Shown here: positions 3,616 through 61,573 of the stretch, one piece after another
How the letters are laid out: each line of letters begins with the position of its first letter
How positions within the stretch are numbered: position 1 is the first letter of the stretch
Assembly: GCA_016185945.1 (NCBI GenBank)
Contig: JACPMR010000002.1
Span: 10,999-74,998, forward strand
Length of the DNA stretch: 64,000 nt
Origin: Candidatus Woesearchaeota archaeon
GTDB taxonomy: Archaea > Nanobdellota > Nanobdellia > Woesearchaeales > GW2011-AR4
Reading direction: 5' to 3'
The notes under the pieces: generated by a model
The model's database searches: none
The model's input: only the letters and a program-made list of their open reading frames with translations
Told to the model about the DNA's origin: nothing
Translations under genes and position numbers: made by a program

Positions 3616-3648
3616 CTAATAAAGTGCTTCTATAATTTTTAAGAAATT

Positions 3649-21251: not shown

Positions 21252-22268
21252 TTACTCTTCGTTTTCCATTTCTTCTTTGTATTTTCCCATTGTTGCCAAG
21301 CTATTTAACTTGGCGCGCTTTACGAATGCCTTTTGGGCTTTTGGGATGTTTTCATCCTTGCCCTGCCATGCCTTCAAAGCAGGATCCTGCAATGCCCTTG
21401 CATAGGAAAAGCTGACATACCATGGCAAATCCTCTCCTAAAGTGTGTATCCTGTTTAAGTGGGCTGTTGCTTCCTGCGGAGTCTGCCCGCCTGAAAGAAA
21501 ATTAATGCTTGGCAGCTCTTCGGGCACTGTTGCTTTCAGGCATTTCACTGTTCTTCTTGCAACCTCGTCAACGCCTGCCCTGCTATTTGCCTCTTTCCCA
21601 GAAATCACCATGCTCGGCTTCAATATGGCACAATCAATTATCACATTTTCTTTGTTCAATGCGTCAAACACCGCCCTCAAAACTTTTTCATTAACTTTAT
21701 GGCATGCATCGATAGAGTGGGTGCCGTCAATCAAAACTTCCGGCTCGACAATAGGCACAAAGCCATGCTGCTGGCATATTTTTGCATATTTTGCCAAGTC
21801 ATGCGCGTTTCTCTGGATTAATTTTTCAGTTGGTGTGTTTTCTGAAATAGAATAAACTGCGCGCCATTTGGCAAACCTCGTCCCAGCTTCTTTGTATTTT
21901 TCCAGCCTGTCCCCTAATCCATCGAGCCCTCTTGTGTACTGCTCTGCAGAGCTGTCAAAGTCAGCAAGCCCTTCGTCTACTTTAATACCTGGAACAATGC
22001 CTTTGCTGCTCAGCACTTCAGGAAATAAAATGCCATCATTTGACTTTTGATGCAGGGTTTCTTCATATAAAATAACTCCGCAAATGTATTTTTCCATTCC
22101 GGGAGCAGCCAGCATTACATTCCTGTACTGCCTTCTTGTCTCTTCTGTTGATTCAACGCCAATGCTTGCCAACCTTTTTGTTGCAGTCTTAACGCTTTCA
22201 TCAGCAGCCAAAATTCCCTTTCCGACAATTACCATGTCCTTTATTGTCTGTTTAAGCTCTTGGCTCAT
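21252..22268 (-). CDS. fba: fructose-bisphosphate aldolase, class I (eukaryotic/glycolytic-type fold)
   Basis: GILAADES, ILFPEVL and SGGQ motifs typical of class I FBA (PF00274-like). 338 aa. Confidence 0.85.
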   Translation of the reverse strand: MSQELKQTIKDMVIVGKGILAADESVKTATKRLASIGVESTEETRRQYRNVMLAAPGMEKYICGVILYEETLHQKSNDGILFPEVLSSKGIVPGIKVDEGLADFDSSAEQYTRGLDGLGDRLEKYKEAGTRFAKWRAVYSISENTPTEKLIQRNAHDLAKYAKICQQHGFVPIVEPEVLIDGTHSIDACHKVNEKVLRAVFDALNKENVIIDCAILKPSMVISGKEANSRAGVDEVARRTVKCLKATVPEELPSINFLSGGQTPQEATAHLNRIHTLGEDLPWYVSFSYARALQDPALKAWQGKDENIPKAQKAFVKRAKLNSLATMGKYKEEMENEE

Positions 22269-22323
22269 AACTATTTCACCTTTTGATTTTTAAGTGATTT
22301 TGATTTTTATTCGACGACTAATC

Positions 22324-22465
22324 TTTCAATCCGGCTTTGCCAAATTCTAGTGCTCGGCAAAACTTCCCTTTCAATCAGTTTTGCCTCGCCTATATATTCA
22401 ATAAAAAATAAAAAGCGGTTTACTTTCTTCACGCTTACATCCAAAAGTCGCTCTCGTTTTTTTGA
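22324..22465 (+). repeat. element copy C (subfamily 2)
   Basis: ttcaatccg, then ctcGGCAAAACT...AGTTTTGCCtcgcctatatattcaataaaa...aaagtcgctctcg. Confidence 0.6.
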
Positions 22466-22550
22466 TTTAAATTTTTTAATGAGTTTTAGTATTGTTTTAA
22501 TTTTTATTGATGAATTTTTTATTGATATTTGTTTTGAAATCTTTTTTAAC

Positions 22551-23507
22551 TTAATAATCGGGAAAATGCTCGAACTTGTGCCTTGCCTCGATAAATCTGA
22601 CTGTCTTTGTCTTTGCGCGCATTACAATTGAGTGTGTTTTTGCCCCGCCGCTCAGGAATTGCACTCCTTTGAGGATTGTTCCGTCTGTAACTCCTGTTGC
22701 CGCGAACATCGCCTCGTCGCTTTTAACCAATTCATTCATTGCAAGCTTTTTGTCAAAGTCAGTTATCCCCATTTTTCTAGCTCTTGCCTTTTCTTCCTCG
22801 TTCCTGAAATTTAATCTGCCCTGAATTTCGCCGCCAAGGCACTTAAGCGCAACTGCTGCGATGACGCCTTCCGGAGCCCCCCCGATTCCCATTAAAATAT
22901 CAACCCCTGAATCCTCGATTGCAGGCGCCAATGCTCCTGCTATATCCCCGTCTCTTATCAACTTGATTCTTGAGCCGCATTTTCTGATTTTTTCAATCAT
23001 TTCTTTATGCCTGTCTCTATCCAAGATTATTACAGTTACCTCGTCAATCGGCTTATCTAACTTCTCAGCAACTGCTTTAAGATTCTCTTCAACAGAAGCA
23101 TCCAAATCGACAGTGCCAACACATTCAGGGCCGACAGCGATCTTGTCCATGTAAGTGTCAGGGGCATTTAACAAGCAACCAGAAGGAGCAGCGGCAAAAA
23201 CAGACATCGCATTTGGGTCTCCTCTTGCTGTGATTGTTGTGCCTTCAAGAGGGTCTACAGCAATATCGAGCTTTGTGTTTCTGCCTGTGCCAACTTTTTC
23301 ACCAATAAAAAGCATTGGGGCTTCATCTCTTTCGCCTTCACCGATGACAATCGTGCCGTCCATGTCAATAATGCTGAAAGATTTTCGCATTGCCTCAACT
23401 GCAGCTTGGTCTGCTGCCTTTTCATTGCCTTTTCCCATCCAGTAAGCTGAGCTTATTGCAGCCGCCTCTGTGGCTCTTACAAAGTCCAAAGCAAGATTCC
23501 TGTCCAT
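22551..23507 (-). CDS. glpX: fructose-1,6-bisphosphatase class II (GlpX type)
   Basis: GlpX-like sequence throughout (GEGERDEAP, DPLEGTT, MGIGGAPEGV). Confidence 0.85.
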   Translation of the reverse strand: MDRNLALDFVRATEAAAISSAYWMGKGNEKAADQAAVEAMRKSFSIIDMDGTIVIGEGERDEAPMLFIGEKVGTGRNTKLDIAVDPLEGTTITARGDPNAMSVFAAAPSGCLLNAPDTYMDKIAVGPECVGTVDLDASVEENLKAVAEKLDKPIDEVTVIILDRDRHKEMIEKIRKCGSRIKLIRDGDIAGALAPAIEDSGVDILMGIGGAPEGVIAAVALKCLGGEIQGRLNFRNEEEKARARKMGITDFDKKLAMNELVKSDEAMFAATGVTDGTILKGVQFLSGGAKTHSIVMRAKTKTVRFIEARHKFEHFPDY

Positions 23508-24533: not shown

Positions 24534-25880
24534 ATGCTCTCAGAAATATTCAAAGCATACGATGTAAGGGGGATTTACGGGCAAAATCTTACTGAGGAAA
24601 CAGCTTATAAAATCGGTAGGGCTTTTGTCTGCTTTCTCAAGTGCAAAGACGTGATTGTAGGGACTGACATGAGAGAATCCTCGCCAAAACTCAGCAAGGC
24701 ATTCATGAAGGGTGTTGCAGAACAAAGAGCAAATGCAGTTTTCATAGGAGAGGTTTGCACAGATGCCGTTTATTTTGCCTCGGGATTTTTGAATAAGCCG
24801 GCTGTGATGTTTACTGCCTCTCACAATCCACCCCAATGGAATGGAATTAAATTCTGCAGAGAAAATGCAATACCCATAAATGAAGACACCGGATTAAAAA
24901 GGATAAAGTCAATAATTGAAAATAATGAATATAGTAAAAAAACGGCAAAAAAACAAGGAAAAATAATCAAAAGAGATGTATTAAAAAACTATGTAGCTCA
25001 CGTCAGGAAATTTATTGATATTAAAAAACTGGGAAAATTAAAGATTGCAGTTGATGCGGGCAATGGGATGGCTGGAAAGATGATTCCATTGGTTTATAAA
25101 AATCTTCCAATTAAGATTATTCCTATTTATTTCAAACTCGACGGGACTTTCCCGAACCATCCTGCTGACCCGTCAAAATATGAAAACCTTGTTGAATTGC
25201 AGAAAATTGTAAGAGAGCAAAACTGCGACTTTGGAATAGCTTTTGATGGCGATGCCGACAGGATATTTTTCGTAGATGAAAATGGACATGTAATAAACAG
25301 TTCTCTTATATCGGCATTGATAATAAAAAATATATTAGCAATTAGCAATAAGCAAAAAATAATTTACAATGCAGTGTGCAGCCATATAGTGCCTGAGACG
25401 ATAAAAAAATACGGAGGCACCCCGATCATCGAAAGAGTGGGACATTCCTTCATAAAGGAAACGATGAGAAAAACAAAGGCGATTTTTGCATGTGAGCATT
25501 CAGCACATTATTATTACAAGGGGAATTTCCGGGCTGACTCCGGCATAATAACAAGCTTGATTATGTCCGAGATTATCTCAAAGGATAATAAGCCATTGTC
25601 ACAATTGCTGGAGGAATTCGGGGTTTACCATACAATAGAAGAAACCAATGTGGATGTAAAAGACAAAAGTGCAAAATTGAGGGAAATCGAAAACATTTAC
25701 AAAAAACAAGACCCTAAAAAAATATCAAAGCTCGACGGTATCACTATTGAATTTGATGCCTGGTGGTTCAATGTCAGGCCTAGCAATACAGAGCCATTGC
25801 TGAGGTTAAATTTAGAAGCGGATTCTGAGGAATTGATGAAAGAGAAAAAAGAGGAATTGCTTAATTTAATGAGAAGTTAA
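24534..25880 (+). CDS. phosphomannomutase/phosphoglucomutase
   Basis: YDVRGIY N-terminus. Active-site TASHNPPQWNGIKF. Confidence 0.88.
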   Translation: MLSEIFKAYDVRGIYGQNLTEETAYKIGRAFVCFLKCKDVIVGTDMRESSPKLSKAFMKGVAEQRANAVFIGEVCTDAVYFASGFLNKPAVMFTASHNPPQWNGIKFCRENAIPINEDTGLKRIKSIIENNEYSKKTAKKQGKIIKRDVLKNYVAHVRKFIDIKKLGKLKIAVDAGNGMAGKMIPLVYKNLPIKIIPIYFKLDGTFPNHPADPSKYENLVELQKIVREQNCDFGIAFDGDADRIFFVDENGHVINSSLISALIIKNILAISNKQKIIYNAVCSHIVPETIKKYGGTPIIERVGHSFIKETMRKTKAIFACEHSAHYYYKGNFRADSGIITSLIMSEIISKDNKPLSQLLEEFGVYHTIEETNVDVKDKSAKLREIENIYKKQDPKKISKLDGITIEFDAWWFNVRPSNTEPLLRLNLEADSEELMKEKKEELLNLMRS

Positions 25881-27143: not shown

Positions 27144-27509
27144 ATGATAAAGACAAAATTAAAGCCTATTTTGCCAAGCCTGAGGGAAAAAAAGCGCTAT
27201 CTGGTATTCGAGATAATTTCAAAAGAGAGGGTAGAAGACGCTGGCGCTGTTTCAAACGCAATATGGGGCTGTGCATTGAAGTTTCTGGGACAGCTTGGCA
27301 CTGCCAAAGCAGGAATTATGGTGCTTAACAACAAGTGGAATGCAAAGCTTCAGAGAGGCGTCATAAAAGTCAGCCACAAGCATGTCGATGCCTTAAAGGC
27401 GGCATTGATTTTTGCTGGCGGGATTGACAACACAGAGGTTATATTTAAGAGTGTGGGCGTGTCGGGCATATTAAGAAAAGCCGAACGAAAATATTTAAAT
27501 GCTTTGTGA
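27144..27509 (+). CDS. rnp2: RNase P protein component 2 (Pop5/Rnp2)
   Basis: LPSLREKKRYLVFEI matches the archaeal Pop5 N-terminus. Position in the exosome superoperon. Confidence 0.75.
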   Translation: MIKTKLKPILPSLREKKRYLVFEIISKERVEDAGAVSNAIWGCALKFLGQLGTAKAGIMVLNNKWNAKLQRGVIKVSHKHVDALKAALIFAGGIDNTEVIFKSVGVSGILRKAERKYLNAL

Positions 27510-27554
27510 ATTATGGTTACTTAAAAAGAATTAACAAACGAGGTGCAATAAAAA

Positions 27555-28304
27555 ATGCAACAGCCAATGCCGCATCAATTGATGGGATACGACAGGGCAA
27601 TCACAATGTTCAGCCCTGATGGAAGATTACTTCAAGTAGAGTATGCCAAAAAGACTGTAAGACAAGGCTCTACAGCCATAGGAATGGTATGCTCTGACGG
27701 GGTTCTGCTGGTTGCCGACAAGAGAGTTGTTGACTCATTAGTTGTCCCGGAATCTGTTGAGAAAATATGGCAGATTGACGAGCATATAGGAGCTGCTGCT
27801 TCAGGGATTTTGAGCGATGCCAGAGTGCTGATTGACAGGGCTCAATTAAGAGCGCAGCAAAACAGGGTAACTTATGATTCTGAAATCGATACTTTGACGA
27901 TTGTCAAGGACATGTGCGACTTAAAGCAGATTTGCACCCAAAGCGGCGGCTTGAGGCCATTTGGTGTTTCTGTTCTGGTTGCAGGCATCGACAACCATAC
28001 CCCCAAGCTCTTTGAGACAGACCCGATAGGAATTTACTTTCAATACAGGGCAACGGCAATAGGCGAGGGCGAAATTGAGGTAGAGGAAATATTGCACAAC
28101 GAATACAAGCAGGACTCTACAATAGAAGAGGGCTTGAAATTGTCGTTAAAAGCCCTGAAAAAGGTGCTCGGAGAGAATTTTAACATAGAGAGAATCGATG
28201 CAGCATACATCAACTCGGCAGATAAAAAATTCAGAAGATTCGCAAAACAAAGATTAGAGAAAGTAGCGTCAGAGTTAAAGGATGAGAAAAAAACAAAGAA
28301 ATGA
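27555..28304 (+). CDS. psmA: proteasome alpha subunit
   Basis: YDRAITMFSPDGRLLQVEYA signature. Confidence 0.92.
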   Translation: MQQPMPHQLMGYDRAITMFSPDGRLLQVEYAKKTVRQGSTAIGMVCSDGVLLVADKRVVDSLVVPESVEKIWQIDEHIGAAASGILSDARVLIDRAQLRAQQNRVTYDSEIDTLTIVKDMCDLKQICTQSGGLRPFGVSVLVAGIDNHTPKLFETDPIGIYFQYRATAIGEGEIEVEEILHNEYKQDSTIEEGLKLSLKALKKVLGENFNIERIDAAYINSADKKFRRFAKQRLEKVASELKDEKKTKK

Positions 28305-28312
28305 CGGGATAG

Positions 28313-29017
28313 ATGATGGTTACAGTTGATCAGGCGATAATTGCAAGGTTAAAGGCGCATGGGCAAAGCTTTGAGATTCTTGTTGACTGCAACAATGCGC
28401 TTGCCCTGAGGGACGGCAGGGAAATGGACATGCGCGACATTCTTGCAGCCATGCAGATTTTCTCTGATGCCAAAAAGGGCTTGGTTGCTTCTGAAAACGC
28501 AATGCGGCAGATTTTCGGCACAAGCGAAGTTGATGATGTTGCAAGGCAGATTATACAGAAAGGAGAGATACAATTAACGCAGGAGTACAGGGAAAAATTA
28601 AGGGAGGAAAAAAGAAAGCAAATCATCGCAATAATTCATAGAAACGGCGTTGACCCAAAAACGCATTTGCCGCATCCTCCGCAAAGGATTGAGAACGCAT
28701 TTGAGGAAGCAAAGCTCCATGTTGACGAGTTCAGGTCCGTGCAGGAGCAGGTGCAGGAAGCGTTAAAGAAGCTAAGGCCGATTTTGCCGATTAAATTTGA
28801 GGTCAAGGAGATCGCAATCAAGATTCCGCCGGAGTATGCCCCAAAATGCTATGCCCCTGCAAAGCAATTCGGCACGATATTGAGAGAAGAGTGGCAAAGC
28901 AATGGCTACTGGGTTGCTGTTGTCGAGCTGCCAGGCGGCATGGAAAATGACCTTTACGACAGGTTAAACAAGATATGCCATGGAAATGTGGAAAGCAAGG
29001 TTTTGAAGATTAAGTGA
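28313..29017 (+). CDS. sdo1: ribosome maturation protein SBDS/Sdo1
   Basis: SBDS-family sequence. Conserved superoperon position. Confidence 0.8.
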   Translation: MMVTVDQAIIARLKAHGQSFEILVDCNNALALRDGREMDMRDILAAMQIFSDAKKGLVASENAMRQIFGTSEVDDVARQIIQKGEIQLTQEYREKLREEKRKQIIAIIHRNGVDPKTHLPHPPQRIENAFEEAKLHVDEFRSVQEQVQEALKKLRPILPIKFEVKEIAIKIPPEYAPKCYAPAKQFGTILREEWQSNGYWVAVVELPGGMENDLYDRLNKICHGNVESKVLKIK

Positions 29018-29112
29018 TTGAAAATTTAAGAATATGCAATATCAACGAAAAATAATATAAAAAGTAATATTCAAACGACAAAAACAATAAAAATTCAAAA
29101 TATCAAGCATAG

Positions 29113-29823
29113 GTGAAAACAAAAATGTCAAAAATAATTGCAAAGGACAAGGAAATAGCAGTGCCTGGAGAGACACTGGCTAAAGGGATGGAAGTTCTGC
29201 CGGGAATCGGCACTTGCAGGGACGGAGAAAATATAATGGCTAACCGCCTTGGATTAGTCATGATTGAAGGAAGGACAATAAAGCTTATCCCATTATCGGG
29301 AAGGTATATACCGAAAACAGGAGACACAATAATATGCAAAGTCGTTGATGTCAGCTTCAACGGCTGGCGACTTGACACAAACTCTGCCTATTCAGCGATG
29401 CTGTCGATGAAAGATGCGACTTCTGACTTCATTGCAAGAGGGGCTAACTTAACACAATATTATGACTTAGGAGATTATGTCGTATGTAAAATTGTCAATG
29501 TCACGAGCCAGAAACTCATTGATGTGACAATGAAAGGGCCTGGATTAAGGAAGCTGAAGGGCGGCAGGATAATTGAAGTTAATCCTCACAAAGTGCCTCG
29601 TATAATAGGAAAGCAGGGCTCAATGGTTGTGATGATAAAAGATGCAACAAGGTGCAACATTGTTGTCGGGCAAAATGGCTTGATATGGATTGACGGCGAG
29701 CCATTGAATGAGCTGCTTGCCATCCAAACAATCAGAAAGATTGAAAGGGAAAGCCATTTGAGCGGCTTGACTGACAAGATAAAGGAATTTTTGGAAAAAA
29801 ATGGCGGGAAATTAACAGGGTGA
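29113..29823 (+). CDS. rrp4: exosome complex RNA-binding subunit Rrp4 (S1 plus KH)
   Basis: S1 domain followed by KH (IIGKQGSMVVMI). Confidence 0.85.
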   Translation: MKTKMSKIIAKDKEIAVPGETLAKGMEVLPGIGTCRDGENIMANRLGLVMIEGRTIKLIPLSGRYIPKTGDTIICKVVDVSFNGWRLDTNSAYSAMLSMKDATSDFIARGANLTQYYDLGDYVVCKIVNVTSQKLIDVTMKGPGLRKLKGGRIIEVNPHKVPRIIGKQGSMVVMIKDATRCNIVVGQNGLIWIDGEPLNELLAIQTIRKIERESHLSGLTDKIKEFLEKNGGKLTG

Positions 29824-29830
29824 TATTAAC

Positions 29831-30541
29831 ATGGCTTACAAGCAAAGAATAGACGGAAGGGGCTTTGACGAGACAAGGCCTATAGAAGCGAAAGTTGGAG
29901 TGATTCAAAGGGCAGACGGCTCTGCAATGTTCAAGATAGGCAACACATGGGCATATGCTGCAGTGTACGGACCGAGAAACCTGCATCCTAAGTTTTTGCA
30001 GGACCCCCAAAGAGGAATTTTAAGATGCAACTATAACATGATGCCTTTTTCGAGCTCTGGCGAAAGGGTAAGGCCAGGCGGCTCAAGAAGATCAAAGGAA
30101 ATATCCCTTGTCACGGAAAAGGCGCTATTGCCTGTGCTTGACTTGGAGGAATTTCCTAATTCTGTGGTTGACGTCTTTATTGAATTGCCCCAGACAGAGG
30201 CTGGCTCAAGATGCGCTGGCATATGCGCTGCGTCAATGGCGCTGGCAGATGCAGGATTGAACATGAAGGATTTGGTTTGTGCAGTTTCTTTAGGAAGGGT
30301 TGACGACAAATTGCTTATTGACCTGGATTATTCGGAGGAGAGCTATAAAGACGGGCCAGTTGCAGACATTCCAATTGCAATGATGCCGAATTCCAGCAAG
30401 GTTACATTGCTGCAGATGGACGGCGAAATAAGCAAGGAAGAGCTGATGGAGCTGCTTGAAAAGAGCAGGAAAGTTTTGATGGATATTTACGAAGTCCAGA
30501 AAAGGGCATTGAAGGAAAAATATCACGAGGTTGAGGTATGA
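29831..30541 (+). CDS. rrp41: exosome complex exonuclease Rrp41 (RNase PH-like)
   Basis: RNase PH fold (RADGSAMFKIGNT). Confidence 0.88.
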   Translation: MAYKQRIDGRGFDETRPIEAKVGVIQRADGSAMFKIGNTWAYAAVYGPRNLHPKFLQDPQRGILRCNYNMMPFSSSGERVRPGGSRRSKEISLVTEKALLPVLDLEEFPNSVVDVFIELPQTEAGSRCAGICAASMALADAGLNMKDLVCAVSLGRVDDKLLIDLDYSEESYKDGPVADIPIAMMPNSSKVTLLQMDGEISKEELMELLEKSRKVLMDIYEVQKRALKEKYHEVEV

Positions 30542-31314
30542 TGCATAGGGAATTGAGAAATCACATAATCGGGCTTCTTAATGCTGACATAAGGCTTGAC
30601 GGAAGAAAGCTTACAGAGTACAGGAAGCCGATTGAAGTTGAATATGGAGTTGTAAAGACAGCAGAGGGCTCTGCAAGAGTCAAGATTGGCGAAACCGATG
30701 TCATTGTTGGAGTCAAACTTGATGTTGGCGAGCCGTACCCTGACACTCCTGATGAAGGCACAATTATTGTGGGAGCAGAATTATTGCCATTATCCAATCC
30801 AGAGTTTGAGCTTGGCCCGCCCGGGATTCAAGCGATTGAACTTGCAAGGGTTGTTGACAGGGGCATTCGGGAAAGCAAGGCGCTTGACTTCAAGAAGCTC
30901 TGCATCACCCCAAGCGAGAAGATATGGATGGTAATAATTGACATATGCCCGATAAATGATGCAGGCAATTTGTTTGATGCAGCGTCACTGGCTGCTCTTG
31001 CCGCCTTAAAGGACACAAAATATCCTGCATTTGACGGTGAGAAAATAGACTACAAGGCAAAGACGGACAAAAAGCTTGGGCTGGAAAAGATGCCGATAGC
31101 CGTGACTGTAATAAAAATCGGCAGCAAGTTCATTGTGGATCCTGACATAGAGGAGGAGAAGGCAATTGATGCAAGGCTGACGGTTTCCTCCATAGAAGAC
31201 GGCACTTTGTGCGCCATGCAGAAAGGCGGCGATTTTCCATTGTCAATCGAGGACATAGACAAGATGCTTGACATCGGGATTGAGAAGGCAAAGGAGTTGA
31301 GGAAGTATTTGTGA
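30538..31314 (+). CDS. rrp42: exosome complex subunit Rrp42
   Basis: RNase PH-like, inactive-type. Overlapping start with rrp41. Confidence 0.85.
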   Translation: MMHRELRNHIIGLLNADIRLDGRKLTEYRKPIEVEYGVVKTAEGSARVKIGETDVIVGVKLDVGEPYPDTPDEGTIIVGAELLPLSNPEFELGPPGIQAIELARVVDRGIRESKALDFKKLCITPSEKIWMVIIDICPINDAGNLFDAASLAALAALKDTKYPAFDGEKIDYKAKTDKKLGLEKMPIAVTVIKIGSKFIVDPDIEEEKAIDARLTVSSIEDGTLCAMQKGGDFPLSIEDIDKMLDIGIEKAKELRKYL

Positions 31315-34242: not shown

Positions 34243-35322
34243 TTACTCCGTAAAGTAGTCAATTCCAAGCTCGTCGCTGAATCTTTTGGCTTCAATGACT
34301 CTTGACTTCTTGTCCGCTTTGCCGAGTATCCATGGAGAGTTGACTCCTGTGATAATTGTCATAACAGCAACCTTTCCTTTCATGCTGTCTGAGACTCTTG
34401 CTCCCCAGATTACATTTGCGTCATGGTCCAAGCTTTCTGTCACCAGCTCGCCGATTTTGTTGACCTCGTCAAGTGTCATGTCAGGCCCGCCTTCAACATG
34501 AATTAAGGCTCCTGTTGCACCCTTGTAGCTAATCTCAAGCAGAGGATTGCTTAATGCTCCTTTTACAGCTTCTTCCACTCTGTTTGTTGTGTCAGAAACT
34601 CCAACTCCTATTGCTGCAACTCCACCATCCTGCATTATGGCTTTTACATCAGCATAGTCTAGATTAACCAATGATGGCACTGCAATTGTCTCCACTATTC
34701 CCCTTATCATTGTTGCCACAAGCTCGTTTGCAACTGCAAATGCCTGCTGAACCGGCAGATTGCCTGCGATGTTAACAAGGCGATTGTTGTCAATCACGAT
34801 AACTGTATCTGAGGTTTGCCTTAATTGCTGCAATCCGAATTCTGCCTTGTCTATTCTTGCCCTTTCAATCTTGAAAGGCATTGTCACTGTGCCGATTACA
34901 ATTGCGCCTGAGTCCTTTGCAACCTGCGCTACAACTGGAGATGCGCCTGTTCCTGTGCCGCCTCCCATTCCAGCGCATACAAAGACCATGTCAGAGCCTT
35001 TCAGGACTTCCTTGATTTCCTGTATGTTTTCCTGAGCTGCCTTGTTTCCCTTGTCCGGGAATCCTCCGCAGCCAAGCCCTCTTGTAAGCTCTCTTCCGAT
35101 TAGAAATCTCTTGTCAGATTCTGTGATTTCCAGATGCTGCTTGTCTGTGTTGCAGGCAATAATCTCAGCTCCCCTTATTCCTTTCCTGTAGAGCCAGCTC
35201 ACCATGTTGCTGCCTGCTCCTCCGCAGCCGATAACCTTTATGTTGGCATGCCCAACCTGCAAGTCCTCTTTTTGCGCAACGCCTTGCTTAAGCGCGCTTT
35301 CAATTACAAAATCCATTCCCAT
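34243..35322 (-). CDS. ftsZ: cell division GTPase FtsZ
   Basis: Tubulin signature GGGTGTG. 359 aa. Confidence 0.93.
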
Positions 35323-39420: not shown

Positions 39421-40420
39421 TTAAGTTATTTTATAAGTTCCCGGCTTCATAAACACCTTTTCCGTTTTGACAGCAAGTCCTTTTTCTCCAAGCATTTCCT
39501 TTGAGTTCATTTGTGATGTACCAAGTGCTATTAGCTCATTTTTTAGAGTCATTATAGCCACTACGCTATTCTGATTTATTCCACTTTCTACTTTACTTAT
39601 TCCAGGCACTTTCAAGTCAACGCCGTGGCATAAACTTTCAACAGTTGTGTCGAAAACCCAGATTTTTGGAAGGTGATTTACGCCATTTTCAACCAGCTGG
39701 ATTACTTTTCTGATGAATCTCTCATTGTTTTCTTCCTTCCAGAAATGATATGCGTCCTGAAGTTCGTGCAGCGTGAATAAAGTTGATTCGTCAAAAGGGC
39801 CTGCTTTTGTTCTTCTCAATTCAGCCATATGCGCGCCTGTGCCAAGTTTTTTTCCGATGTCGTGAATCAATTTTCTTATGTAAGTGCCTGCCTCTGTGCC
39901 GACTTTGAACAAAACATCCTTTCCGTCAATTTCAAGAATGTCAAGATAATAAACTGTTCTTGTCCTTAACTGCCTTTTGACAGAGCTTTTAATAGGGGGC
40001 AACTGCTCAATTTTTCCGATGAAATGCTTTTGAATTGTTTCCCTTAATTTTTCCTCTTCGACTTCCTTGTGCAAGTGCATTATTGCAACATACTCCTTGC
40101 CTGCTGTCAAAAGCGCTTGCACAATCCTTGTTGCTCTGCCTAAAGCAATTGGAAGAACTCCGGTTACTGCGGGATTTCTCTGATTTTTACTCTAGAGTCC
40201 CAGAGTGACCAGATTTAGTTATTCCGAGTATTTTTTGCACGTAGTCAGCGACCTGATGGCTTGTTGGACCTTTCGGTTTATCTATGTTTATGATTCCATA
40301 ATTTATTATCCCTTCTGTTTTCCTGTCCTCAGGTTTACAACCATATCCTTCGCCTGTCTCTGCTTCTTTCCGAACAAGGACTTTTCTTTCTATTCTTTCA
40401 AATGGTAACAGATTTTTCAT
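39421..40420 (-). CDS. cbf5: tRNA/rRNA pseudouridine synthase Cbf5 (TruB family), interrupted: exon 1 40191-40420, exon 2 39421-40174 (327 aa if 16 nt removed)
   Basis: Track ORFs 40187-40420 (...KSGHSGTLE*) and 39421-40122 are contiguous Cbf5. Removing 40175-40190 restores [23 protein letters not shown] with the catalytic Asp. Confidence 0.8.
40175..40190 (-). other. 16-nt intervening sequence in cbf5 (candidate bulge-helix-bulge-type archaeal intron; alternatively an indel)
   Basis: Pre-mRNA GGGACUCUAGA|GUAAAAAUCAGAGAAA|UCCCGCAG. GGGA pairs with UCCC and CUCU with AGAG, leaving an AAA bulge at the 3' junction. Confidence 0.45.
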
Positions 40421-40459: not shown

Positions 40460-40996
40460 TCAAACACTTCTAGGAGCAGTCGGATGCGTTTCCTGCATCT
40501 TCGGCTTTTGGGGGGCTTTCGGAGCATGTACTTTTGGATGCTCTTTCTTCAGTTCTTTAATTTCTTCCTGCTCAATTTTCTTTGCCTCTTCTGCTTTTTC
40601 CTCTTTTATCTCCTCGACTTGTTTTTCAAGTTTCTCTTCCGGTTTTTCTTCCGCCTTTTTCTCTTCTTTCTTAACTACTTTCTTTTTTTCCTCTGCCTTC
40701 GGCTCTTCTTTTGGCGCCCCCACAAGCTCGACAAAAACTTTGCCTTTGTCGTCTTTGGCTGCGTTCACTTTAACTTTGTGTGGCGGGTTTTTTGCGCCAT
40801 GGTTCCACACAGCAAGGTTCAGATATTTGCCGATAACGACATTATCGGATTTCATGTGCCTCGAGATGAAAGCCCTTATTGTCTTGACTGCTTTGTTTGC
40901 TTTCTTGAACGGAGGAACTTTCAGAGTTTCCCTTCTAAGCGGGATTATGTAAACTCTTTCCAACACCAGTTTTGGGGTTTCTTCTTTTTTTGGCAT
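40460..40996 (-). CDS. rpl31e: ribosomal protein L31e with ~90-aa K/E/A-rich C-terminal extension
   Basis: RVYIIPLRR...AVWNHGAKNPPHKVKV core, followed by a low-complexity tail. Confidence 0.8.
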   Translation of the reverse strand: MPKKEETPKLVLERVYIIPLRRETLKVPPFKKANKAVKTIRAFISRHMKSDNVVIGKYLNLAVWNHGAKNPPHKVKVNAAKDDKGKVFVELVGAPKEEPKAEEKKKVVKKEEKKAEEKPEEKLEKQVEEIKEEKAEEAKKIEQEEIKELKKEHPKVHAPKAPQKPKMQETHPTAPRSV

Positions 40997-54551: not shown

Positions 54552-56558
54552 TTAAGTAACTTCCACTCTAATCTCTTTATTACTTCCAGCAACATCAGGA
54601 ACAAAATTTAAATCAATATTTTTTTCTTGTCCAGCATTTATAGTTTCTATTGTAGAATTTTTTAGGGTATTTTCAAAAAACAAACTAATAGTAATATTTT
54701 TATTATCTATAAAATTGTTTTTTATAACAGATCTTACTAAAGTAGTTTTACCTTTAACCAAATCGACATCTTTTATGACTTGAATAGGAATGATCTCTTG
54801 AATAGTGAATCCTATTGTTAAATTTGATTCATACCATATTACTTTATCATCATTTTGTGATGCGCTTAACACATCTGTATCATTATCTTTATCGATATCT
54901 ATTGCAAATACAGACCATGCACCATCTGCAGTGATTGATATATTATGTGGTATAAAATTTGGAGGAACACTACCATTGTTCTCGTACCAAGCTATTTTGT
55001 CATCAAATTCAGAAGCACTTAATACATCAATATCATTATCCTTGTCTAAATCTATTGCAAATACTGATCTTGCTCCATTTGCATCAGTTGCTATAATTCT
55101 AGTAGTCCAATTTGGAATTGAACTACCATTATTTTCGTACCATGCTATTTTATTATCATCAACTGATACACTAACTACATCAATATCATTATCACCATCG
55201 ATGTCTATAGCAAATACCGAAGATGCACCTGCAGCAGATGTTGTTATATTATGAACTGTCCAATTCGGTGGAGAACTGCCATTATTTTCATACCAAGTAA
55301 TTCTGTTATCATCCAATGAAGCACTTACCACGTCTATATCATTATCTTTATCTATATCTTTCGCATATACAGACCATGCATTGTTAACATTTGTTGAGAT
55401 TATGTGTGTGGTCCAATTTAGAGGTGATCCTCCTTTATTCTCGTACCATTCTATCCTATCATTAAAACTTGATTCACTAACCACATCAATGTCGCTATCA
55501 TTGTCTATGTCTATTGCATATAGGCCTCCAGGGTCTTTAACAGAACTTATAATATGGCTTACCCAATTTATTGGTGAACCCCCTATATTTTCATACCATT
55601 CAATTCTGTCAAGACCATCTAGAGTGGCGATTACATCAGTATCATTATCTTTATCTAAATCTATCGCAAACACGGCAATAGGTCTGTCGGCATCTGTCTT
55701 TATTGTATAATTTGTCCAGCTTGGAGTGGATCCACCATTATTTTGATACCATTCTATTTTATTGTCAAAATTGACTGAGCTAATAACATCAATATCTTGG
55801 TCATTATCTAGGTCAGCGGCATAGACAGATAATGCTCCATTGGCTGTAACACTTATATTTCGTGCTGTCCACCCGATTACCGGATCAATAAACAATTCTT
55901 CTAATCCTTCAAGTTCTTTATTTACCTCTAAATTAATATAATTTTTATTATTGAAAGAATAAACAGAAACAGAGTAATTTAAATCAGTGATATCCTTAAA
56001 ATTATAATAATTATTTCCAAATGTTAATGTATGTCCTGTTAAAGAACTTTTATTTAAACCTGGAAACTTTCCTTTTGTAACTTCAAACGCTTTAAAGTAA
56101 ATAGGTTTTTTGCTAACAACGTATTTTGTTCTATTCCAAACAACAAAATCAGAATCTATTTCATACAGAATATTTAATTTTGTATTCTTGTTGGTATTTA
56201 ATAAATTTCTAAGAATATAACTCTGTTTTATTGGTCTTTCATCCACATTAAAGAAACTGGTATCAATTTCTTCATAAATGCTTTCAACCTCTATATTTTG
56301 GGATTTAAACTTATTTCTTATTTTTTTTTCAGAAAAAGGAAGAGTTTCTTTATCAAATGCTTCAACAGTGATATTATCATAATCAATGCCAAATCCTATC
56401 TGCTTAAATCTTTTAAGCTGATTAAACTTATCAACAGCTACTATATCATCTATGATTGGTTTTGTTTGATTACCATTTAAACTAACAGCGCTTACAATAA
56501 CAGAGAAAGAAATAACTATAATAAGGAAAGCTATCACCTGCTTTTTGTTTAACTCCAC
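54552..56558 (-). CDS. secreted FG-GAP/VCBS-repeat beta-propeller protein
   Basis: Signal peptide. About 7 repeats of DxDxDxDIDVxS...D.KIxWYENxGGSxxxW. Confidence 0.7.
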   Translation of the reverse strand: MELNKKQVIAFLIIVISFSVIVSAVSLNGNQTKPIIDDIVAVDKFNQLKRFKQIGFGIDYDNITVEAFDKETLPFSEKKIRNKFKSQNIEVESIYEEIDTSFFNVDERPIKQSYILRNLLNTNKNTKLNILYEIDSDFVVWNRTKYVVSKKPIYFKAFEVTKGKFPGLNKSSLTGHTLTFGNNYYNFKDITDLNYSVSVYSFNNKNYINLEVNKELEGLEELFIDPVIGWTARNISVTANGALSVYAADLDNDQDIDVISSVNFDNKIEWYQNNGGSTPSWTNYTIKTDADRPIAVFAIDLDKDNDTDVIATLDGLDRIEWYENIGGSPINWVSHIISSVKDPGGLYAIDIDNDSDIDVVSESSFNDRIEWYENKGGSPLNWTTHIISTNVNNAWSVYAKDIDKDNDIDVVSASLDDNRITWYENNGSSPPNWTVHNITTSAAGASSVFAIDIDGDNDIDVVSVSVDDNKIAWYENNGSSIPNWTTRIIATDANGARSVFAIDLDKDNDIDVLSASEFDDKIAWYENNGSVPPNFIPHNISITADGAWSVFAIDIDKDNDTDVLSASQNDDKVIWYESNLTIGFTIQEIIPIQVIKDVDLVKGKTTLVRSVIKNNFIDNKNITISLFFENTLKNSTIETINAGQEKNIDLNFVPDVAGSNKEIRVEVT

Positions 56559-56729
56559 ACTAACACCCCCAAACTGATTTTTATGATAAAGTACAACTCC
56601 TATTTATATTTTTTCATTTTCTCGTCTATAAATCTTGTATAATCCATTCTATATAAAATATATTTCTTCAATTCTTAAAACTTAATCGAGTTAATAAATT
56701 TTTAACAATAATTCATGTTACATAGTACT

Positions 56730-58742
56730 TTACTTCAAACTCCCCTTCAAAAACAAATAACCACCTTCATTAACAAAAGCAACTAGATTGCTTGAATTGT
56801 CCTTTATCCTGAAGTCATTTTTATTTGTGCCAGAGGTTAAAGTACCTTGATTTTCCTGCAAAGTGCCGTCAATATACATAGAGCCATTGTTTTCTATTAT
56901 CAAGACATCATTTAGGTTGTTTCTTATCTTAAAGGCGAAATTATCTGTCGCTTGGAAGTTTGAGGATTGTTCTAGAACACCTTTTATTACTATATTTCCA
57001 GCATCTCCAAACCATGCTATGTTGCTACCTGAAGAGTTTTTTATGAGGAATTTGTTTATGTCTGGAAGAGAGGTTGTGTTTACAGTGACAGAAGCAGTTA
57101 ATGAAGCAGTTACTGCAGTTGATTCGCTTATTCCAGTTGCATTTGCCTTTACATTGAATGTTCCGCCGCTGCTGAAATTGTAAGCCAGATATACAAATTC
57201 CTTTTCGTTTACAGCTAAAGAGCTTATGTTTATTGTGCTGTTTATCACATTGTTGTTGGCTGTGTCAAACTGCCATTGGACATTTGTGACTGTGTTGCTG
57301 CCGTTGTTCAGAATGACAAATTCAAAGATTTTTAGTGTTCCATTGCTGTACATCTCTGTTATAGATTCTATCTTAAGCGATACAACAACGCTTACATTAT
57401 CCTGTATGTAATAAACACCAAAATCAGATAAATTTAATATACCAAAATTGTTTGAAGAAAATGCCAGAGAGACATTGCAGTAGCCTTCAGAATCCTCGCT
57501 GCAATTTGCTAGAGCATTATTTAATTCCTGATTGAAGTCAAGCACATTTTCTTCATTGCCAAAGTATCCTGTATTATTCCAAGCCTGGCTATTATTTACA
57601 TATAAAATGGGGTTTTGTGTTGCGTTTCTAATTGTAACAGTATTAGCACTTTGTACCTGTGTTCCAAACAACAAACCATCGCTTGGAGTGACTTTGCAAT
57701 ACCATTGATCGCCAGGTGTTAAATTGTTTTTGGCCAATGTTTGAGAGTTTATATTTTGGTTTACACTATTTTTCCACCATTGATAGCTTGAATTTTGCTC
57801 TGTAAAGTTTTCTGGATCGGAATAAGTGTAGTTGCATAATAAGTCTTGTCCAGCATTTGGGATTTCTGGTAGGACACTTACATTAGAAACAGAAGGTGCT
57901 TCATGAGTTCTGTCACAGCTTTGGTCATTGCTTTGATTTATTAAAGTTGATTCATAAACAATATATTTTACACTAGGTGGAGTTACAGCGCCTATCCTGT
58001 TTATGTTTACATAGTCATTGGCGCCCCCTAAATTATCACCGCACTCTGAATCTGTATATAATGTACTATCTGGAGTGCCCTGATCATAATAATAACCTTG
58101 ATGCACATTCAGTATTGTGGCTCTGTTGTAGCAGTCTGTATCGCATATACCACTTCCACCAACCCCTGAGCATGCTACTGTATTCGGAGAGCATAATACC
58201 CCTTCTTTAACTCTGATTTTTGAACGATAAGTGCTGTCGGCATCAGCTTCTGTATGGGCCCTCATTGTCTTAATTAAATAATCAAACTCTGGATCGCCAA
58301 CATTCCCGATATAGTTGTTCATGCCGTTAAACCATGGCGAGCTTCTTTGCGTATCATCCCAAAATCCGCCTATTGCTTCTGAATCACAATCTGGAGAAAC
58401 TGGATCTACTGTAATACTTACCTCATGGTCAGCCATGTGTGTTGCATCATAAGTGAAATTGTAGCATCTTCCTGTATTTGTAGGAGTATAGCTAGAAGAA
58501 ATATCATTATCTTCCACTCTGCTGTTGTCTAAAAATCCAACGTTTGTATCAGAAGCCACTTGAGTCCAATCTTGCTTGCATACTTCCACTGTGCAATTCC
58601 TTACACAAGTTGAGCCTTCGCATTTTACGCCATTATCGGTATAGCCAGAAGGACATGCTGATGTAGTGCAGTTTATGTAAGCCAAAGTATTTGGAATTAT
58701 TAAAAATAATGCTAAAATCCATATTAAATTTATTTTTCTCAT
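56730..58742 (-). CDS. secreted Cys-rich surface protein with shared C-terminal cassette
   Basis: Signal peptide. Cys-rich N-terminus. C-terminal ~110 aa about 90% identical to the tail of 52029-54122. Confidence 0.6.
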   Translation of the reverse strand: MRKINLIWILALFLIIPNTLAYINCTTSACPSGYTDNGVKCEGSTCVRNCTVEVCKQDWTQVASDTNVGFLDNSRVEDNDISSSYTPTNTGRCYNFTYDATHMADHEVSITVDPVSPDCDSEAIGGFWDDTQRSSPWFNGMNNYIGNVGDPEFDYLIKTMRAHTEADADSTYRSKIRVKEGVLCSPNTVACSGVGGSGICDTDCYNRATILNVHQGYYYDQGTPDSTLYTDSECGDNLGGANDYVNINRIGAVTPPSVKYIVYESTLINQSNDQSCDRTHEAPSVSNVSVLPEIPNAGQDLLCNYTYSDPENFTEQNSSYQWWKNSVNQNINSQTLAKNNLTPGDQWYCKVTPSDGLLFGTQVQSANTVTIRNATQNPILYVNNSQAWNNTGYFGNEENVLDFNQELNNALANCSEDSEGYCNVSLAFSSNNFGILNLSDFGVYYIQDNVSVVVSLKIESITEMYSNGTLKIFEFVILNNGSNTVTNVQWQFDTANNNVINSTINISSLAVNEKEFVYLAYNFSSGGTFNVKANATGISESTAVTASLTASVTVNTTSLPDINKFLIKNSSGSNIAWFGDAGNIVIKGVLEQSSNFQATDNFAFKIRNNLNDVLIIENNGSMYIDGTLQENQGTLTSGTNKNDFRIKDNSSNLVAFVNEGGYLFLKGSLK

Positions 58743-61573
58743 GGCGCTAATCCAGTCACTTTTAATTTTGAATAAATCACAGTGGCATTCTTTGGAAGCC
58801 TTATATTAACAGTTAAATTTCCTGGCTGGGTGAAGTTAAGCAATTTATTCGTTAAGCCATCTGTGAATTGGTTTTGTAACTTTGTAGTTTCATTGAAAAC
58901 AATAACGTCAATAAACTGGGTTGTGCTTAAATTGCCGTCAGAAGCCTCTACTAAAATAGAATAGTTGCCAGTGTCATTAATTGTAGTTTGCCATTGACCT
59001 GAAGAGTTAAATGGTGAGCTATAGAAAAAATCTATGCTATTACCTTCCGCATCTGAAGTTGAAATCAATTGGCTTATATTGATTAAATCTCCAGCAATTG
59101 CTGTTACGTTGCTTATCTTTGTTATTTCTGGCGGTGAATTAATATTTGAAACACTAACGAAAACAGTTTCAGGACTTGCTGCTCTTTTGAATGCAATTTC
59201 TGCAACTCCGTCATTATCAAGGTCGGCAATTGCTAGACCGTTGTCTATCAATCCTACTATTTTGTAAGGATCAAACAGTAAGTTTCCATCATTTTTTAAT
59301 ACATAAACGCTTGAGCCTTTGTTTTCGCCTAAAATAATATTGTAATTTCCATCATTGTCTATATCAGCACTGCTGGGACTTATGGCTCCTGGATGTAAGG
59401 TGTTAGAAGCATCATAAATCCATTGCTGTGCTCCGCTCACAGCATCAAAAGCCCTTACAGAGCCAAGACCATCAGGCAAGGTTTTTTCCATTGTAACGAC
59501 TATCTCCATATTTGAATCAGAGTCTAAATTAACTATTGTTGGCGTCGCTCTTGGAATGTCTGTAAAGCTTATAGGAAAGTTTGCATTGTATTCATTGCAA
59601 GTTAAAGGATTAACTACATGCAGTTTATTTTCACAAGTGCTACCTGCAGCGCAAGGTGTATTAGCTGTCACATACACCAATTCATAATCATTATCTTTAT
59701 CAACATCATAAATTACAGCAGAATCCCATAAATAAGCATGCGTGTTGTTGCATAATTTGTTTAATTTTCCAGTGCTTTGATTATATTTAAGGATAATAAT
59801 TCCATATTGAGATGGAACCACAATTTCGGGATAATCATCGCTATCCAGATTTGCTATTGAAACAGAGCCATAAGCTCCTCCATTTCCTATTATATAGCTG
59901 GTTTCATTTGCTCCTGTATTTCCATTAAGAACATAAACCTTTCCTGGCCATTCATCATCGCCATCAAGCAAATCAACAACAATTACTTCTTGTTGCCCGT
60001 CCAAATCAACATCAGCAACAGCGCTTCCTCCATTAAACTTAACTCTAAAGTTAGTGCCATCAAATCTTGGCTCTAAATGATATTGCCATTTTATTGTTGG
60101 CTGTCCGCCATCAAAGTCATAAGCATAGATTGTTCCGTTTCTGTTGCCTGTAATAATTTCTTTCTTTTCATCATTATCTATATCTGCTAAAGTTGGAGGT
60201 CGATAGATTGAGCCGTCTTCGCCGCCTCTTACATTTACAGCATTCCATTTTGGTTTTGTTTCAAAGCCAAGCGGTATTTTCAAGAATGATTTTTTCTTTG
60301 TTTCAGTAGCAAACATTCTTGTAAAGTTGCCCATAACTGGCTTATGGACAAGAATTACAGTGTCCATCAAGCCATTTCCTTCCAAATCAGCAACAGAGGG
60401 CTTAACAACTTGCTGTATGTTGTCGTTTGCTGCGTCTAAGAAGAAATCAACTTGATTTTTTACATCTTTTTTGTCTTTTAAGTCGCCTTTAAGCAAAGTA
60501 AATCCAGTTCTTCTGAAATCATGGTTTTCGGTGGGCCAGTCGAAGAAATTTACTGCACTAAATAAGTCAATTCTTGAGAAGTTTTTACCTGTATCTGGTT
60601 CTAATATTTTCTTACCAGTATTTTTAAGAAGCATCTCGATATCGAATGGTTTTAAAGCAGTATCATATTGTTTTAAGAGCAAAAAAGCCCCAGCTACGTG
60701 TGGTGTAGCAAAACTAGTTCCAATAGTACACCTAAAGTCTGATATTCCCAGTTCACACAAAATCTCATTAAAGAATGTAAAACCTCCTCCTCTTTTAATT
60801 GTTTTTATATAATCTCCAGGTGCCAATAAATCCAAATTGGAACCTACATTTGTGTAACCACTGATAATGTCCTTCTTATTTACAGAACCTACTGGTGTAA
60901 CATTTCCTAAACAAGCAGGAAAATTAATTCCAACCCGACTAAATTCATTTCCCGATGCGAATATAACCGATATTCCCTTAGAAATAGCTTCAGCTACAAC
61001 TTTGGATAAATTAGAATTATAAAGATTTCCACAATTTGTATCATTATAGGTTAAATCACCTAAACTTGCACTAATAGTTGTTATGTTTAATTTTGTGCTG
61101 TTATCAATACACCACTTCATACCCTTTTCTACTCGATTCCAAAATTCTTGGTCTGATGCCGAATCTCCAGTATCTTTAAAGACTTTTATAGATACTATCT
61201 TAGAATTTGGAGCAACACCTGGAAAAATCGCATTAGTAGACGAAATTATCCCAGCAACTGCTGTTCCATGATATTCTACAGCATATGGATTAGAATCGTT
61301 ATCACCAAAATCGTAACCACCTATTACTTTTCCACAACTTTTGTCATTGATATCAGTTGTTATGTTGCATCCACCCAGACTGGGGCGGGTATAATCTATC
61401 CCATCATCAATAATACAAACTGTATTATATTGTCCTGAGATACCACTCAAATATAAATTCCAAGAACCAATTATTCTAGTAGTTGTGGACAAAGCATATG
61501 CAAATTGTACTATAAGTATTAAAGTCATTAAAATTAACAAATTTATTTTAATTCTTTTTATTAATATGGTCAT
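58739..61573 (-). CDS. subtilisin-like serine protease (S8) fused to FG-GAP repeats
   Basis: Catalytic triad contexts IIDDGIDY, HGTAVAGII, GTSFATPHVAG. 944 aa. Confidence 0.8.
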   Translation of the reverse strand: MTILIKRIKINLLILMTLILIVQFAYALSTTTRIIGSWNLYLSGISGQYNTVCIIDDGIDYTRPSLGGCNITTDINDKSCGKVIGGYDFGDNDSNPYAVEYHGTAVAGIISSTNAIFPGVAPNSKIVSIKVFKDTGDSASDQEFWNRVEKGMKWCIDNSTKLNITTISASLGDLTYNDTNCGNLYNSNLSKVVAEAISKGISVIFASGNEFSRVGINFPACLGNVTPVGSVNKKDIISGYTNVGSNLDLLAPGDYIKTIKRGGGFTFFNEILCELGISDFRCTIGTSFATPHVAGAFLLLKQYDTALKPFDIEMLLKNTGKKILEPDTGKNFSRIDLFSAVNFFDWPTENHDFRRTGFTLLKGDLKDKKDVKNQVDFFLDAANDNIQQVVKPSVADLEGNGLMDTVILVHKPVMGNFTRMFATETKKKSFLKIPLGFETKPKWNAVNVRGGEDGSIYRPPTLADIDNDEKKEIITGNRNGTIYAYDFDGGQPTIKWQYHLEPRFDGTNFRVKFNGGSAVADVDLDGQQEVIVVDLLDGDDEWPGKVYVLNGNTGANETSYIIGNGGAYGSVSIANLDSDDYPEIVVPSQYGIIILKYNQSTGKLNKLCNNTHAYLWDSAVIYDVDKDNDYELVYVTANTPCAAGSTCENKLHVVNPLTCNEYNANFPISFTDIPRATPTIVNLDSDSNMEIVVTMEKTLPDGLGSVRAFDAVSGAQQWIYDASNTLHPGAISPSSADIDNDGNYNIILGENKGSSVYVLKNDGNLLFDPYKIVGLIDNGLAIADLDNDGVAEIAFKRAASPETVFVSVSNINSPPEITKISNVTAIAGDLINISQLISTSDAEGNSIDFFYSSPFNSSGQWQTTINDTGNYSILVEASDGNLSTTQFIDVIVFNETTKLQNQFTDGLTNKLLNFTQPGNLTVNIRLPKNATVIYSKLKVTGLAP

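Follow-up and report, generated by a model that had tools for sequence, protein, structure and literature searches.

A probable bulge-helix-bulge intron in the catalytic codon of cbf5 from a Woesearchaeota-like archaeon

Cbf5 is the catalytic subunit of the H/ACA pseudouridylation ribonucleoprotein (RNP). An intron in its gene, cbf5, has been described from the Sulfolobales and Desulfurococcales (Watanabe et al. 2002; Yoshinari et al. 2006; Yokobori et al. 2009, PMC2738675). That crenarchaeal intron splits the catalytic codon and is 16-44 bp long (16 bp in Desulfurococcus mobilis and D. mucosus, 31 bp in S. tokodaii), and both cDNA and in vitro cleavage data exist for it (PMC2738675). In reviews from 2020 and 2023 it is restricted to a small crenarchaeal group. 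The present analysis concerns an interruption of cbf5 in a 64,000-nt stretch of DNA from a Candidatus Woesearchaeota archaeon (contig JACPMR010000002.1, positions 10,999 to 74,998; hereafter the window). This interruption is very probably a genuine pre-mRNA intron of the bulge-helix-bulge (BHB) type, with a relaxed 5' site. An earlier note, made from the same DNA, had invoked cbf5 as the classic crenarchaeal host of such introns. This is right, and the match is closer still, given that the published intron also splits the catalytic codon.

The cbf5 gene lies on the minus strand of the window, at 39421-40420. Translation starts at the ATG at 40420-40418, and the unspliced reading frame ends, as RNA, in ...AAA UCU GGU CAC UCU GGG ACU CUA GAG UAA, which encodes KSGHSGTLE followed by an in-frame stop (UAA, 40189-40187). 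Two open reading frames (ORFs) result, namely ORF1 (40187-40420, 77 aa) and ORF2 (39421-40122 from its first GTG, 233 aa). The earlier note had read the same stop after KSGHSGTLE, and this can be seen directly on the minus strand. It had also described the frame as resuming 64 nt later. That is where the ORF2 call begins, its first start codon being found only at 40122, but there is no real gap, the exon-2 frame being open directly from the end of the insert. Deletion of 16 nt in either of two equivalent registers (40175-40190 or 40176-40191) gives an identical 984-nt coding sequence and a 327-aa Cbf5 with the motif GHSGTLDP, exactly as had been proposed. The spliced protein has the full Cbf5 domain set (Pfam DKCLD, TruB_N, TruB_C_2 and PUA), and its residues 3-322 align to the Pyrococcus Cbf5 structure 2aus_C with an E value of 2.5e-121 and no gap at the junction.

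On this basis the gene can be divided as follows. Exon 1 (40192..40420, minus strand) encodes residues 1-76 and supplies the first base (G, 40192) of the Asp77 codon. The 16-nt intron, AGUAAAAAUCAGAGAA, occupies 40176..40191 on the same strand, with cuts at G40192/A40191 (5') and A40176/A40175 (3'). Exon 2 (39421..40175, minus strand) opens with the AU of the Asp codon, continues with CCC GCA GUA ACC (DPAVTG...) and ends with the stop codon at 39423-39421. Excision joins G to AU and rebuilds Asp77, the catalytic aspartate, within GHSGTLDP; the predicted spliced junction is ...GGGACUCUAG followed immediately by AUCCCGCAGUAACC.

The RNA around the junction was folded by unconstrained minimum-free-energy (MFE) prediction of positions 40158-40212 (55 nt), with 200 shuffled sequences as a control. 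The MFE was -19.8 kcal/mol (z = -3.79), and an equally good fold was found in 1 of the 200 shuffles. It is apparent that this fold contains an outer exonic stem, an exonic helix h formed by (U)GGGA and UCCC(G), a 4-bp central helix H formed by CUCU and AGAG, and an unpaired AAA on the 3' side. All of the elements that the earlier note had named, namely the GGGA:UCCC and CUCU:AGAG pairings and the 3-nt AAA bulge, are therefore present in an unconstrained prediction.

The individual strands, all on the minus strand of the window, are placed as follows. In the outer exonic helix, five of the six bases of GGUCAC (the Gly-His codons, 40205..40210) pair with GUAACC (40162-40167), and a 3x3 internal loop separates this helix from helix h. 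The 5' strand of h, GGGA (40198..40201), consists of the Gly codon GGG and the first base of the Thr codon, and pairs with UCCC (40171-40174); in the MFE fold the exon-2 strands of both helices fall within 40162..40174. The exonic strand of H, CUCU (40194..40197), which was identified from both the MFE fold and covariation, is made of Thr bases 2-3 and Leu bases 1-2. Its intronic partner, AGAG (40178..40181), covaries with it in relatives. The 3' bulge AAA (40175..40177), unpaired in the MFE fold, holds the 3' splice site after its second base. The 5' splice-site triplet AGA (40191..40193), cut after its G, is the 5' bulge in the canonical register; in the MFE fold A40193 alone is bulged, while G40192 and A40191 pair with C40182 and U40183. 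The interior of the intron, GUAAAAAUC (40182..40190), contributes an intronic helix h' of a single pair, G40190-C40182. When the strict two-bulge register was imposed the energy was -15.8 kcal/mol, approximately 4 kcal/mol costlier than the MFE of -19.8 kcal/mol. As modelled, the motif fits the relaxed (hBH/BHL-like) definition of a BHB and not the strict one. The relaxed geometry suspected previously is thus borne out, with a degenerate 5' site; a relaxed BHB is also reported for most crenarchaeal cbf5 introns.

The published rule for cbf5 introns places cleavage between residues 2 and 3 of each bulge (PMC2738675). Applied to the window, it puts the 3' cut in the AAA bulge after A40176 and, by symmetry, the 5' cut after G40192; excision of the 16 nt in between restores GAU-CCC in frame. 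The rule therefore selects 40176-40191 over the equivalent deletion 40175-40190.

Alignment with relatives, which the earlier note had suggested as a check on conservation of the insert, revealed inserts at the same nucleotide position in 8 other genome loci. They are among 57 related cbf5 loci obtained when genomes, one per species, were scanned (loci and contigs are designated here by L numbers). The 16-nt insert of locus L018 is identical to that of the window, and that of L020 differs from it by a single additional A in the loop. The Cbf5 proteins of L018 and L020 are approximately 80% identical to that of the window, and the DNA is approximately 71-74% identical over the gene and short flanks; across the intron and the sequence on either side of it, identity rises to 92-96%. 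Inserts at the same nucleotide were also found in three further loci labelled Woesearchaeota (L047, 14 nt; L037, 18 nt; L039, 17 nt) and in three labelled Bathyarchaeia (L049, 38 nt; L050, 28 nt; L051, 29 nt). Insert-bearing genome loci thus number nine in total, the window included, and some 40 other DPANN loci in the genome set have no interruption.

A search pattern built from the genome cases (GGTCAYNNNGGGACNNTNG, then 9-39 nt, then AYCCNNNNGTNWCNGG) was used to scan metagenomes, and at least 120 matches were obtained. All 120 of the matches listed are cbf5, and removal of 11-39 nt restores GH[G/S/T]GTL-DPxV[T/S]G in each. The BHB cleavage rule gives a functional junction in all of these 120 loci as well as in the 8 other genome loci. 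The downstream frame is open for at least 100 codons in 117 of the 120 (approximately 250 in most), and the three shortest meet the end of the contig or, in L102, masked NN. The intron-bearing sequences obtained were grouped by best protein match. In the 19 nearest the window, the median intron length is 16 nt, h' has 1-2 bp in 15 of the 19, and many introns start with AGUAA. The 104 nearest a Bathyarchaeia gene have a median of 21.5 nt and an h' of mostly 3-5 bp, in a canonical hBHBh' arrangement. A few members are crenarchaeal-like, with Sulfolobaceae-like and Aeropyrum-like genes. One of these, the Sulfolobaceae-like L111, has a 31-nt intron and is identical at 42 of 55 residues to a segment of S. 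tokodaii Cbf5 (PMC2738675 supplement), the comparison with named crenarchaeal species being one of protein segment and intron length.

Two side observations were made in these sequences. Bathyarchaeia-type cbf5 genes (L049-L051 and most of L059-L178) very often carry the Asp-codon intron, in the form A + GGC...GCC + AGAG/GGGG + AA; many Bathyarchaeota relatives (75-87% identity) are without it, so the distribution is patchy there too. In addition, some Woesearchaeota-like cbf5 genes (L039, L123 and L137) contain a second putative BHB intron within the GP(T/S)SH motif. In L039 (cbf5 region 3001-4008) this intron is 22 nt long, AUAGGUUUCAUACCUAAGGCAA, with GCCU/AGGC as H and an h' of 5 bp. Those of L123 (13 nt; approximately 1360-1500, plus strand) and L137 (20 nt; minus strand, upstream of the Asp-site intron) are shorter. 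In all three a cut after the second bulge base restores GP(S/T)SHQV. The cbf5 gene of the window has no such second intron.

Covariation was assessed in 121 distinct sequences in fixed columns, with 2000 shuffles. The two variable pairs of H (columns 14/28 and 15/27) are paired in 100% and 97% of the sequences, and the three outermost pairs of h' (20/25, 21/24 and 22/23) in 100%, 90% and 85%; in neither case did any of the 2000 shuffles match. The pair types in H include C-G, U-A, U-G, G-C and A-U, and each of the five scored H and h' pairs occurs as four to five or more standard pair types. The most frequent combinations of exonic and intronic H strands are CUCU with AGAG (35 sequences), CCCU with GGGG (34), CCUU with AAGG (14) and CCCU with AGGG (8), and CGUU with AACG, CACU with AGUG and CUUU with GAAG were seen once each. 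Four combinations are present even when the Woesearchaeota-like AGUAA group is taken by itself, which means that the signal does not merely come from two clades that differ from one another. Pairing in helix h was found in 90-100% of the 121 sequences, but three of its four pairs had largely been fixed by the search pattern. Of 122 distinct sequences, 92 have AAA as the 3' bulge. In unconstrained folds, h, H and a 3-nt 3' bulge were recovered for 94 of 124 family members, 68 of which also have a 3-nt 5' bulge.

In the genome set, which is unbiased in this respect, codon usage also goes with the presence of the intron. The first Gly codon of the motif is GGU in 8 of 9 intron-bearing genes vs 1 of 41 intron-less genes, and the second is GGG in 9 of 9 vs 4 of 41 (Fisher p ~1e-7). 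The stem-adapted exon sequence is GGTCAYNNNGGGACNNTNGAYCCNNNNGTNWCNGG. The interruption had previously been called a candidate BHB-type intron, and that designation is strengthened by the conserved site, the restored motif, the compensatory changes in the helices and a cleavage rule that picks the in-frame junction.

The earlier note had offered, as an alternative, a 16-nt mutation or an assembly error. An inactivating insertion would make cbf5 a pseudogene in a reduced DPANN genome. The unspliced frame does hit UAA right after GAG, DPANN genomes are reduced, and the close relatives L002, L003 and L004, together with the top protein matches, are uninterrupted. Such a pseudogene is nevertheless very unlikely. 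Both exon frames are intact, and comparisons among the intron-bearing genes of the window, L018 and L020 gave dN/dS values of 0.05-0.10, with dS > 1 and constraint in both exons. This purifying selection, together with the 92-96% identity of the intron region, rules against a neutral insertion in a dead gene. The insert is identical or nearly so in species that have diverged by approximately 20% in protein, inserts of various lengths at one nucleotide all restore the motif, and neither helix covariation nor stem-building synonymous codons would be expected in a dead gene. As for an artefact of assembly or sequencing, with the 16 nt absent from the real genome, the window apparently derives from an uncultured, metagenome-derived organism, and in run SRR12113420 a Logan contig has its end immediately upstream of the insert. 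That contig, from a different assembler, matches the 233-aa ORF2 residue for residue and holds the same 16 nt, a support that is independent at the level of the assembler only, shared source reads being possible. The insert is also carried by the unrelated assemblies L018 and L020, and at least 120 other contigs have one at the same site, so that the likelihood of an artefact is next to negligible. Exact look-up of ORF fragments returned one Logan contig only and no cluster of similar fragments. This contig (L001, 1-31) starts exactly at GGGACUCUAG..., and its first 31-mer contains the entire h-H-intron-h motif. Low coverage, or a difference between strains at the synonymous site just before, is the probable cause of the break, which is unlike the pattern expected from a bubble between intron-plus and intron-minus alleles.

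Two other explanations would leave the mRNA unspliced. Known bypass sites, such as that of phage T4 gene 60, have a stop and a hairpin, and the immediate stop and local hairpin in cbf5 could be taken to indicate translational recoding, whereby the ribosome skips the 16 nt by bypass or frameshift. This is extremely unlikely, in that the Asp codon is split into G and AU and cannot be restored by any pair of take-off and landing codons, the inserts (11-39 nt) span every frame class, and the conserved feature is a BHB geometry with covarying helices rather than matched codons. Moreover, the homologous crenarchaeal insert is spliced, as determined by cDNA sequencing (PMC2738675). The fact that gene callers output two ORFs might instead suggest a split gene, in which polypeptides of 77 aa and 233 aa assemble with one another. 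Split protein genes are known in DPANN archaea, e.g. some genes of Nanoarchaeum. Here, however, the catalytic Asp-Pro and approximately 22 conserved residues precede the first ORF2 start codon (40122) and would go untranslated, and relatives conserve the exon-2 frame from the junction, not from an internal start. An assembly of two polypeptides is accordingly regarded as exceedingly improbable.

Were the interruption spliced as a BHB intron, the following course of events would be anticipated. The cbf5 transcript would carry the 16 nt, in which, as sequence, folding and covariation show, exonic GGUCAC-UCU-GGGA-CUCU pairs with intronic AGAG and exonic UCCC-GCA-GUAACC. The paired RNA has an exonic stem, a 4-bp central helix, a bulged AAA where the 3' junction lies and, at the 5' junction, a relaxed AGA that would be cut after its G. 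From established archaeal BHB processing and the crenarchaeal precedent, the tRNA splicing endonuclease EndA would cut after G40192 and A40176, leaving a 2',3'-cyclic phosphate and a 5'-OH, and the ligase RtcB would join the exons to give GAU (Asp77) in GHSGTLDP. Unspliced mRNA would yield only the 77-aa fragment without the catalytic Asp, and production of active Cbf5 would therefore presumably depend on cutting by EndA and ligation by RtcB. It might be speculated that the intron regulates Cbf5 levels, as has been suggested for Crenarchaeota. An EndA gene was observed on contig L153 (plus strand, ORF from ~1681, ~187 aa, PF01974 and PF02778, of alpha-type length), which also bears a cbf5 gene with a 20-nt intron.

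Several points weigh against the splicing of this insert as a BHB intron. Neither EndA nor RtcB was found in the 64-kb window, either by Pfam (~60 of the 71 non-overlapping ORFs that reach 70 aa) or by phmmer (all open frames of at least 90 aa), the phmmer queries being M. jannaschii EndA and E. coli RtcB; the presence of both enzymes in the source genome is assumed. The 5' site lacks a clean 3-nt bulge, with its canonical register ~4 kcal/mol above the MFE. Relaxed motifs require EndA types of broad specificity (PMC5829648), and the proposal thus presupposes that a DPANN EndA would be able to cut a relaxed 5' site. DPANN EndAs are described as alpha4 enzymes that possess an additional L3 loop, and an association between them and more disrupted tRNA genes has been noted (PMC5829648). 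Proteins matching the spliced product were sought as possible traces of a cDNA or transcript, using the window protein and a well-sampled Bathyarchaeota allele as queries; no full-length identical protein was found for either, the best full-length match being 87% identical. Finally, most outer-stem bases were fixed by the search pattern, which leaves H, h' and a small number of stem positions as the only unbiased ones, and the sequences are phylogenetically related, which inflates the shuffle statistics.

The window had been described as non-crenarchaeal, with FtsZ present, and an ftsZ gene was indeed found at 34243-35322 (minus strand). The nearest Cbf5 proteins are labelled Woesearchaeota; more broadly, Candidatus Woesearchaeota or Nanoarchaeota are the names borne by the top full-length matches to Cbf5, at 80-87% identity, and by the informatively labelled loci. 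The G+C content of the window is 37%, and genes for ribosomal proteins L31e and S19e adjoin cbf5. Between the L31e gene and that for a DNA-binding protein is a 57-aa ORF, without a Pfam match, which was read as L39e. Judged from these sequence features, the host is a DPANN archaeon and not a crenarchaeote. The 'binchicken' and 'SRP..._co' records (L002, L003, L018 and others) are titled 'uncultured Methanosarcinales archaeon'. These titles look unreliable and placeholder-like; the Cbf5 proteins of the records so titled are 81-85% identical to that of the window and cluster with Woesearchaeota-labelled genomes.

In a crude neighbour-joining tree of Cbf5, the window lies amid the intron-bearing L018 and L020 and the intron-less L002, L003 and L004, the two kinds being interleaved. 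As the introns of the window, L018 and L020 are clearly homologous, the simplest reading of the tree would be precise intron loss in certain relatives of the window, although the intron may alternatively have spread laterally by recombination. For the cbf5 introns of Desulfurococcales, precise losses were proposed by Yokobori et al. (PMC2738675). It is conceivable, if on the doubtful side, that the Asp-codon intron represents one ancient BHB element, or else a site-specific mobile one, which is older than DPANN, Bathyarchaeia and Thermoprotei or has moved among them, that it has been precisely lost on many occasions, that it is retained because it renders Cbf5 synthesis dependent on RNA processing by EndA and RtcB, and that the second, GP(T/S)SH intron was gained in Woesearchaeota-like lineages. 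If this were true, cbf5 would be the first protein gene of Archaea whose intron history is deep and spans several phyla.

The remainder of the window was also surveyed. A crude scan of both strands for BHB motifs whose removal joins ORFs found the cbf5 intron again and no other convincing intron; the 13 other matches were all at boundaries between separate genes and most likely arose by chance. Scans for tRNAs and Rfam families produced no matches. The L31e protein encoded next to cbf5 (40460-40996, minus strand) is 178 aa long, with a Pfam match confined to residues 13-79, and its last ~100 residues make up a C-terminal tail rich in Lys and Glu (...KEEPKAEEKKKVVKKEEKKAEEKPEEK...), which is unusually long for L31e. 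A conserved archaeal cluster at 27144-31314 (plus strand) encodes Rpp14/Pop5, proteasome alpha, SBDS, Rrp4, Rrp41 and Rrp42, and ftsZ lies not far from it. The window further encodes a class-I aldolase together with a GlpX-type FBPase (21252-23507) and a pair of phosphoglucomutase/phosphomannomutase paralogues, at 14424-15827 and 24534-25880. A run of very large predicted proteins, of 668, 670 and 944 aa, is encoded at 54552-61573 (minus strand). The 668- and 944-aa proteins contain FG-GAP repeats, the latter has a subtilase domain in addition, and the 670-aa protein has no Pfam match; all three are possibly surface or secreted DPANN proteins.

The intron of the window has a number of implications. 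Woesearchaeota-like, Bathyarchaeia and crenarchaeal-like lineages all have an intron at the same site, with at least 120 metagenome contigs and 8 genome loci recorded so far and with close relatives that lack it interspersed among them, and the timing and manner of mRNA intron gain and loss in Archaea, a question raised in PMC2738675, becomes testable with comparative data. The splicing proposed here predicts that a DPANN EndA (alpha4 with the L3 loop) cuts a relaxed motif embedded in an mRNA. Gene callers will split such a cbf5 gene or call it a pseudogene, and loss of H/ACA function could be wrongly inferred in metagenome-assembled genomes. Furthermore, an RNA structure constrains the synonymous codons of a catalytic motif. 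In the searchable literature, whose coverage is incomplete, no report was found of a cbf5 intron in DPANN archaea or metagenome-assembled genomes. The occurrence of the intron in DPANN and Bathyarchaeia, and its frequency in metagenomes, therefore appear to be unreported.

Comparison with known systems places the element within a described type. Like the crenarchaeal cbf5 intron, it lies at the same nucleotide position, has a size within the published range, shows the mostly relaxed BHB and the same cut rule, and is patchily present; being short (16 nt), without an ORF and of unconventional BHB form, it corresponds to the published type of cbf5 intron. It differs in that its host is a Woesearchaeota-like DPANN archaeon with FtsZ, outside the published host range, and in that its h' is only 1 bp. 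The enzymes would differ as well, the crenarchaeal EndA being an (alpha-beta)2 protein with the crenarchaeal loop whereas the expected DPANN EndA is alpha4 with the L3 loop (PMC5829648). A host outside the Desulfurococcales and Sulfolobales widens the range of the family, and what is extended is its distribution, not its mechanism.

With the BHB introns of archaeal tRNAs and rRNAs (hBHBh' and the relaxed forms HBh', hBH and BHL), the element has in common its core geometry, the cleavage rule and, presumably, EndA and RtcB, and the mini-introns overlap in length with the 11-175 nt that PMC2738675 cites for tRNA introns. Unlike these, the cbf5 intron is situated in a coding frame. Half of its motif consists of constrained codons, and synonymous sites in the exons have thereby been recruited for the stem. 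The other reported EndA substrate in archaeal mRNA, the BHB intron of Haloferax volcanii HVO_1309 (Schwarz et al. 2020, PMC7714728), lies in a 5' untranslated region and interrupts no codon, whereas excision from cbf5 is needed for the active site. Splicing of HAC1 and XBP1 in eukaryotes, by Ire1 with RtcB or Trl1, similarly uses a non-spliceosomal endonuclease and a ligase to shift the frame of an mRNA, but the endonuclease and the RNA motif are different and the likeness is one of analogy only. Taken together, these comparisons identify the element as one of a known kind, the cbf5 BHB intron, which involves no new mechanism and which occurs here in a lineage-typical minimal form, 14-17 nt in length and with an h' of approximately 1 bp.

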